Below, in pieces: positions 19,534-19,920 of a stretch of DNA of 58,034 bases. The position numbers were made by a program, and so were the translations under genes. The DNA lies in the IMG/VR virus record IMGVR_UViG_3300029337_000010, positions 1-58,034 of that record; one strand, 5' to 3'. The stretch is from a virus. How positions within the stretch are numbered: the first letter of the stretch is position 1; the number at the start of each line of letters is the position of its first letter. Under the pieces are notes generated by a model. That model did no database searches. It was not told the DNA's origin and saw only the letters and a program-made list of their open reading frames with translations.

Positions 19534-19920
19534 TCACTCCCGCCACTTATAAGAATCACTTTCAATTTCCTGCCCGTGCAAGGACACAAAATCTGTTATT
19601 ACCGCAATAAATTCTGAATTGGTTGGCTTCCCCTTTTTCGGCGAAACCGTATAGCCAAAAATCTTATTGATCGCATTCACATTGCCATTTATCCATGTGA
19701 CCTCTATTAAGTTCCGGATGTTTCTTTCTACTTTGGATGCGGTAGTTCCGTTCTCTTCTGCGACTTTTGCATAAATTTCCTTCATAACACATCTAAGCGC
19801 ATCCCTGTCGTCCAGACATTTCTCTATCGCTCTAATTGTGTATGTGTATCCTTTGAGCGAATGTCTTGCGCCGATCTGATCTAACGTTTTTCTTAAAGCA
19901 ATGTTCGTTTGTTTATCCAT
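19534..19920 (-). CDS. Stand-alone Spo0A C-terminal (DNA-binding effector) domain protein
   Basis: 128 aa. [49 protein letters not shown] closely parallel the Bacillus Spo0A segments [49 protein letters not shown]. There is no receiver domain. Confidence 0.85.
   Translation of the reverse strand: [128 protein letters not shown]

Follow-up and report, generated by a model that had tools for sequence, protein, structure and literature searches.

Links between bacteriophages and Spo0A, the sporulation master regulator, have been described from several directions. The closest precedent is the survey of Schwartz et al. 2023 (mBio 14:e00182-23, PMC10294663), in which spo0A homologs from gut phages were found to be cut down to the effector domain, and in which the main reading considered below was already proposed for this class. 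Phage homologs of sigF and sigG follow the same strategy, in which the phage has its own version of a host sporulation regulator; in the summary given by that study, their expression in Bacillus subtilis altered the sporulation programme and lowered spore yield by up to 99% (PMC10294663). The development of phages phi29 and Nf is likewise linked to the Spo0A system (PMC2731898). On the bacterial side, the isolated DNA-binding domain (DBD) of Spo0A binds its genuine targets without phosphorylation, because the inhibitory contacts of the receiver domain are absent (PMC3485338). Here, a receiver-less Spo0A effector domain gene, spo0A_C, was analyzed in IMG/VR virus record IMGVR_UViG_3300029337_000010 (positions 1 to 58,034); the whole stretch of 58,034 nucleotides is referred to below as the window.

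The gene spo0A_C (19534..19920, minus strand) encodes a protein of 128 amino acids (aa), in which the effector (DNA-binding) domain of Spo0A is complete and the receiver is absent. With a probability of roughly one half, this protein would work as a free-standing effector domain acting on the host Spo0A regulon, uncoupled from the phosphorelay. As an effector domain alone, carried on a viral genome, it falls into the same class as the truncated homologs of Schwartz et al., and represents a re-discovery of that class: receiver-less spo0A genes of human-gut phages were published in 2023 (PMC10294663), so the novelty attached to the gene in a preliminary description of this DNA was overstated. 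Relatives already appear in public databases under the name 'Sporulation initiation factor Spo0A C terminal [Caudoviricetes sp.]', and a standalone family with the label of unknown function, phrog_24603, exists in PHROGs. The published survey covered 29 sequences without locus-level analysis. Added here are the operon position, a partner gene, a selection analysis, clade-specific substitutions and a C-terminal tail, and a negative result for 0A boxes. The sigF and sigG homologs differ from phage Spo0A_C in belonging to another protein family, in acting at a later step of the cascade and in having been tested experimentally, whereas phage Spo0A_C is known here from sequence. With respect to phi29 and Nf the arrangement is reversed: those phages carry 0A boxes and use the host protein (PMC2731898), while the present phage encodes the protein itself, and binding sites are not in excess in its genome.

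Identity of the phage-encoded effector domain

The open reading frame (ORF) at 19534-19920 runs from ATG to stop on the minus strand, and its start is preceded, 5 nt upstream, by a strong AGGAGG ribosome-binding site (RBS; 19931-19926). The Pfam search proposed in the preliminary description gave a significant match to the PF08769 (Spo0A_C) profile (E=2.8e-34; 117.7 bits, with a cut-off of 25 bits), extending over model positions 3-102 of 104. When phmmer was run against the PDB, the structures matched were 1lq1_A, the effector domain of B. subtilis Spo0A with DNA (E=1.2e-25), and 1fc3_A (E=4.7e-25). Both alignments were ungapped over residues 6-114 of the phage protein, and 47 of 109 residues (43%) were identical to B. 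subtilis Spo0A residues 154-262. All three segments that had previously been aligned by eye with the Spo0A C-terminal domain were recovered in the ungapped 1LQ1 alignment.

The proposed lack of a receiver was borne out as well. The TIGR02875 profile, which represents full Spo0A, aligned through positions 148-257 only and scored 110.8 bits, below its cut-off of 200. Moreover, the window copy and the other 128-aa copies that were retrieved have a stop-to-stop frame of approximately 132 codons, which leaves no room for an upstream receiver domain. The phage protein therefore belongs to the Spo0A_C domain family and is not a bona fide Spo0A, since its TIGR02875 match does not reach the receiver: the two are homologous throughout the effector domain, but the phage protein has neither a receiver nor a phospho-acceptor. 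An AlphaFold (AF2) model built from a shallow alignment placed six helices where expected from the helix-turn-helix fold of 1FC3 and 1LQ1, but with a mean predicted local distance difference test score (pLDDT) of only 53.

Conserved and remodelled residues

Residue conservation was evaluated in two sets of sequences. The first one set 33 distinct phage copies against 26 full-length genomic Spo0A proteins (256-324 aa), and the second one comprised 150 representatives from an exhaustive HMMER search, 56 of them receiver-bearing, from which 143 single-domain sequences were tabulated. Residues K171-G-Y, K195, Y198, V212-E213-R214, R217, W224 and G227 were shared by full-length Spo0A and every phage copy, together with F236-V240 and the KPTNSEFIA signature (P247-A254). 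The triad E213/R214/R217 was invariant in 143 of 143 tabulated single-domain sequences. The phage clade also retains N233-V240 (NKIFGYTV) and K244-A254, with T207, T208 and S210 present in the subclass to which the window belongs, and within this clade the sigma-A-activating FGYTV stretch and G227 were 100% conserved. In Bacillus, positions G227, F236 and V240 presumably lie within the region needed for activation of sigma-A promoters.

The phage protein has the same boundaries (154-262 in B. subtilis numbering) as the Spo0A-DBD of B. subtilis and C. difficile (1FC3, 1LQ1), to which it aligns without gaps at 43% identity, sharing the triad, FGYTV and KPTNSEFIA. It differs in that Spo0A-DBD is a proteolytic or cloned fragment, while the phage Spo0A_C is a natural, free-standing gene with substitutions at about ten otherwise near-invariant positions, a remodelled helix alpha-A and an additional conserved tail of about 12 residues. 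The phage clade has its own invariant helix alpha-A (RKTLDQIG), the extra C-terminal tail (EI..SYKW) extends past the Pfam domain, and 68 columns are invariant across both phage subclasses.

Position 257 is Thr throughout the phage clade, while position 162 is Asp and position 174 mostly Thr. In B. subtilis, an A257V substitution abolishes sporulation while abrB repression is kept, with suppressors at H162 and L174 (summarised in PMC9195935). The combination of T257 with D162/T174 is suggestive, as a weak hint, of a protein that might bind DNA but fail to activate transcription. The use of A257T as a marker of lost activation was downgraded, because Thr257 was also found in 8 of the 56 receiver-bearing representatives.

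Distribution, synteny and selection

The scan of IMG/VR yielded 128 confirmed matches, 80 of which were kept for comparison. These copies formed two subclasses, respectively 92-98% and 66-70% identical to the window protein. The gene was found on IMG/VR viral contigs of approximately 57-61 kb, and independent metagenome contigs, 57.8-58.0 kb in size, encode the identical protein. In more than 100 contigs, copy length was constant at 126-128 aa. A word-indexed search retrieved 522 database homologs, and among the 120 matches listed nearly all were 125-128 aa long and contained PF08769 only; single clusters at 90% identity occurred on several hundred contigs, reaching 1000 or more in the largest cases. 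The ratio dN/dS was 0.19 within the subclass above 90% identity, 0.12 within the 66-70% subclass and 0.18 between them, and spo0A_C is clearly under purifying selection.

Gene order was counted in 79 loci, corresponding to 45 close relatives and 34 members of the 66-70% subclass. A homolog of the 91-aa gene that follows spo0A_C in the window was found directly downstream in 79 of 79 loci, with approximately 51% identity between subclasses. The gene for the single-stranded DNA-binding protein (SSB) was present in 79/79 loci and an AAA ATPase in 78/79. The SLT gene was found in 43 of 45 close relatives vs. 4 of 34 in the 66-70% subclass. An antirepressor was present in 44/45 close relatives, and an AntA-domain protein occupied the same upstream slot in the three inspected loci with a 126-aa variant (L115-L117; 68-69% identity). 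The CI/cro pair of the window was common to only 11 of the 45 close relatives, which indicates a mosaic immunity region. Given that the downstream genes are near-universal while the CI/cro pair is not, spo0A_C is part of a conserved early replication/recombination module and not of an exchangeable immunity cassette. In one contig (L097, IMGVR_UViG_3300029330_000242), the gene at the antirepressor position (N-terminus MNNLETT...) and Spo0A_C share a single 401-codon frame uninterrupted by a stop codon; a natural fusion could account for this, as could an error in sequencing.

Outside IMG/VR, 14 matches in GenBank records named 'Bacteriophage sp.' were considered as possible standalone phage copies and rejected, as the four inspected lie in full-length spo0A. 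These four (L241-L244; MT835737, MT835504, MT835718 and MT835781) are UNVERIFIED human faecal virome records, and their spo0A genes encode 255-286 aa with a receiver domain. In L244, ORFs similar to GlgA, RecA and RecX adjoin spo0A, and on account of the RecA- and GlgA-like neighbours this record represents bacterial chromosomal DNA inside a phage collection. The location also differs: the phage gene lies between the antirepressor and SSB genes, while the full-length copies of L241-L244 follow an ORF of about 430 aa in the usual spoIVB position. Among 50,697 GenBank phage records, with four of the 14 matches inspected, no genuine standalone Spo0A_C homolog was confirmed. The plasmid collection gave six matches, to full-length spo0A only (four annotated as such), none of them on a mobilizable plasmid.

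At E<=1e-3, Spo0A_C matches amounted to 7,225 representative clusters. The exhaustive search also returned proteins of 394-1003 aa with 2-4 tandem Spo0A_C domains (P0121, P0122, P0124, P0125 and P0175), in many repeats of which the E213/R214/R217 triad was unconserved, and a large group of proteins of 155-182 aa with an N-terminal extension of 36-110 residues ahead of the domain.

Phage genome and early operon

The window is a complete temperate siphovirus-type genome, as indicated by an integrase, a CI/Cro switch, replication and recombination genes, a tail-module gene and circularity. The assembly is circular on the basis of an exact 75-bp terminal direct repeat (1-127 / 57960-58034 region), and contains 57,959 unique bases with 41% GC. 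The tyrosine integrase gene (128..1330, minus strand; phrog_1, E=1.9e-39) marks a temperate phage. A DNA methyltransferase, a RecT-like protein, an ERCC4-type nuclease, a DnaD-like loader and two SSBs are also encoded, and a tail-module gene carries a Peptidase_S74 domain.

The CI-like repressor gene (21907..22281, plus strand; HTH_3 E=3.9e-09; Phage_CI_repr E=4.5e-4, below the cut-off of that model) is divergent from a leftward early lytic operon. The first gene of this operon encodes a Cro-like helix-turn-helix protein (21194..21379, minus strand; Pfam HTH_26/HTH_3, E~1e-10), and is followed by two small ORFs, the antirepressor gene ant, spo0A_C, the 91-aa gene, and the SLT, SSB and AAA ATPase genes. 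As previously described, spo0A_C lies directly downstream of the antirepressor gene (19983..20762, minus strand), whose product combines AntA and ANT/KilAC domains (ANT E=3.5e-34, AntA E=2.4e-14, phrog_63 E=1.4e-60). The 62-nt spacer between both genes (19921..19982, minus strand) contains the AGGAGG RBS in the sequence, and the promoter/terminator scan predicted neither a promoter-like nor a terminator-like site in it; likewise, no terminator-like site was predicted on the minus strand between the cro-like gene and spo0A_C. Because spo0A_C shares its strand with the cro-like gene and directly follows ant, with no predicted terminator between them, it can fairly be inferred to be expressed early in the lytic cycle and silent in the lysogen. 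The earlier assignment to the early operon thus stood as regards position.

The small partner gene (19251..19526, minus strand; gene call) starts approximately 7 nt past the spo0A_C stop. Its 91-aa product contains two hydrophobic helices as well as an acidic DDGITYIT tail, and had no match among Pfam, PHROGs or PADLOC models; this small membrane protein may be a functional partner of Spo0A_C. Further downstream, all on the minus strand, are the genes for a membrane-anchored SLT lytic transglycosylase (18839..19402; Pfam SLT E=2.2e-15), an accessory member of the module, for SSB (18152..18802; Pfam SSB E=2.3e-20), and for an SbcC/SMC-like AAA ATPase that belongs to the early recombination module (16132..18183; phrog_77 E=8.5e-72, Pfam AAA_15). 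PADLOC gave no defence-system match for the Spo0A_C cassette. The SbcC-like ATPase (16132-18183) did score against the defence models LmuB (E=3e-20) and GajA/AriA/Old; these LmuB/GajA-type scores probably reflect the common SMC/ABC-ATPase fold and not a defence function.

0A boxes in the phage genome

The preliminary description had suggested that the protein could tie the lysis-lysogeny decision of the phage to 0A boxes, and had proposed a search for them. In the phage genome they were not enriched: the canonical TGTCGAA occurred 4 times in the window (7.6 ± 2.9 expected) and the relaxed TGNCGAA 31 times (33 ± 5.7 expected). One-mismatch boxes numbered 128 in the window, and were under-represented between genes (7 vs. 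approximately 15 expected, given the intergenic fraction). No perfect, relaxed or one-mismatch 0A box lay in intergenic DNA of the CI/cro switch, in a search made without de novo motif discovery; this evidence on phage targets concerns 0A-type boxes, other repeated phage motifs being outside its scope. With no enrichment and no box in the switch, a link of the lysis-lysogeny decision to 0A boxes is left without support. The targets of the protein, if it binds canonical boxes, would be located in the host.

One perfect box (50428-50422, minus strand) overlaps the predicted start of a near-consensus sigma-A promoter (TTGACA-17-TATTAT, ~50462-50422), in an arrangement of promoter and box/operator that was found in at least 120 IMG/VR viral contigs. 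This promoter precedes a gene for a 126-aa AcrIC5-like anti-CRISPR protein (49959-50470 with its promoter, minus strand; PF22147 E=7.4e-20). The box is embedded in an imperfect palindrome, TATTGtCGAAAGgCAATA, which fits better as the operator of a dimeric repressor of the anti-CRISPR locus, and for this reason it was rejected as evidence for Spo0A. Just upstream of the AcrIC5-like gene is a 63-aa gene (50477-50668, phrog_31631), whose product could be the cognate repressor of the anti-CRISPR locus.

Probable host

The probable host is Roseburia or another member of the Lachnospiraceae, as suggested by a prophage copy and by a DNA match. Among GTDB species representatives, the only close standalone copy was syntenic and 70% identical, and came from an uncultured Roseburia metagenome-assembled genome, on a contig of 140 kb; the only nucleotide match to a GenBank phage was to Roseburia phage Jekyll (800 bp, 77.5% identity). 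The core genome of Roseburia intestinalis includes spo0A and sporulation sigma factors, and spores have been seen by electron microscopy (PMC11913394).

Function and alternative explanations

If the protein acts on the host Spo0A regulon, it would be produced together with Ant upon infection or prophage induction. Free of the inhibitory receiver, it could then bind TGTCGAA-like boxes on the host chromosome with no input from the phosphorelay, and the host regulon, hence entry into sporulation, would be cut loose from the cell's own signals during phage replication. The premise invoked in the preliminary description, phosphorylation-free binding by the isolated C-terminal domain, is documented for Spo0A (PMC3485338), and phosphorylation-independent binding of 0A-type DNA by the phage protein is plausible in view of its residues. 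The direction of the effect is not settled by the sequence. Interference with sporulation entry appears more likely than forced sporulation, because spo0A_C would be co-expressed with the antirepressor and replication genes, at a time when the phage needs a vegetative host; the protein would in that case occupy 0A boxes and compete with host Spo0A~P, and the cell would stay vegetative for the lytic cycle.

Several points weigh against an action on the host regulon through canonical boxes. The phage protein is only 42-52% identical to the effector domains of bona fide Spo0A, and the window protein carries the substitutions P167R, A168H, H169S, R177I, T194M, P199A, A215N, H218N, A219L and R226N at positions that are 86-100% conserved in the 56 receiver-bearing representatives, with H169 the lowest (48/56). 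Several of these ten changes lie in or beside the helix-turn-helix. In addition, the recognition helix differs between the two phage subclasses (one of the two versions being DTVWRVERSIRHAIEV), so that canonical 0A-box specificity or affinity is not assured. In the 1LQ1 work, E213, R214 and R217 are reportedly the base-contacting residues. Binding by full-length Spo0A normally involves a dimer that phosphorylation induces through the receiver, and a lone domain would have to compete with this receiver-formed dimer in vivo. Lastly, literature searches pairing Spo0A with phage terms found no experimental evidence for any phage Spo0A_C.

The altered residues could instead reflect a phage-internal role, namely that of an exapted early transcription factor for middle or late phage genes or for replication, acting at non-canonical phage sites. 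This role, which we regard as doubtful, would agree with the many near-invariant Spo0A positions changed near the helix-turn-helix, with the different recognition helices of the subclasses, with the clade-specific invariant surfaces of helix alpha-A and the tail, and with the fixed place of the gene in the early replication/recombination module next to a co-conserved partner gene. However, the core recognition residues are unchanged, which argues against a wholesale change of specificity, and canonical and relaxed 0A boxes are unenriched in the phage, depleted between genes and absent from the switch. It is also conceivable, if rather unlikely, that a re-engineered Spo0A derivative serves as a dedicated anti-sporulation or host-replication-blocking factor, possibly with the small membrane protein. 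Such a derivative would bind 0A-type sites without activating them, or titrate host partners, and would lock spore-formers in the vegetative state during lytic growth; it is suggested by the remodelled invariant alpha-A/alpha-F surface, by T257 and by Asp162/Thr174 at the suppressor positions, as well as by the SYKW tail. Spo0A~P binds oriC in B. subtilis, and a shut-off of host replication through 0A boxes at oriC, or a decoy titrating host proteins that touch the Spo0A effector domain, such as sigma-A region 4, would suit the location of the gene among those for SSB, the SbcC-like ATPase, RecT and DnaD-like proteins. The full conservation of G227 and of the sigma-A-activating stretch in the phage clade points in the same direction, but the FGYTV conservation may simply mirror the fold; host Spo0A also affects transcription and DNA replication of phi29 and Nf via 0A boxes (PMC2731898). 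Neither variant would involve direct reprogramming of transcription; both are wholly inferential and quite improbable.

Forced sporulation by a constitutive activator resembling sad67, in which the phage genome would be carried in the spore, is improbable on balance. The sigma-A-activating region is retained, activity in the absence of phosphorylation is documented for Spo0A in isolated-domain or receiver-deleted form (PMC3485338; Ireton et al. 1993, as cited in PMC10294663), and phi29 is established to use entrapment in the spore as a strategy (PMC2731898). Nevertheless, the protein would be made with the antirepressor and replication genes at lytic commitment, so that sporulation would be counter-productive, and a prophage enters the spore anyway. 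The presence of T257 in the clade also argues against activation, given the sporulation-null A257V of B. subtilis (PMC9195935), although weakly, since 8 of 56 receiver-bearing representatives share this Thr. As a truncated homolog of a host gene, spo0A_C could in principle be a decaying, non-functional fragment of a captured copy. The selection and conservation data exclude such a remnant for practical purposes: dN/dS is 0.12-0.19, length is constant in more than 100 contigs, 68 columns are invariant across subclasses, and a strong RBS and conserved synteny accompany the gene.

Persistence and spread from one person to another are governed, in many gut Firmicutes, by the formation of spores. 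A phage protein able to drive or block the master switch without host signals would, if confirmed, represent a direct viral lever on sporulation, and the Spo0A_C family is very common in gut metagenomes. The locus provides a clean test case, with a compact gene in a complete 58-kb temperate phage and a likely cultivable host genus.

Other features of the window

By eye, sequence adjacent to the integrase gene (GCGGAAGGGAGATTTGAACTCGG...) resembles a tRNA 3' end in reverse complement, a feature that would point to an attP within a tRNA gene; ARAGORN found no complete tRNA gene across the circular junction beside the integrase. Four tRNA genes (Ser-TGA, Ser-GCT, Tyr-GTA and Gln-TTG) were detected at 45767-47263 (minus strand), upstream of the terminase region. 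A second antirepressor/Rha-like regulator is encoded at 53338-53976 (minus strand; phrog_373, E=4e-35), distant from the switch. Lastly, a PAPS-reductase-like gene (phrog_424) is located at 4778-5995 (minus strand); Schwartz et al. (Table 1, PMC10294663) include PAPS reductase in their set of 'sporulation gene' homologs for which phages of spore-formers are enriched.

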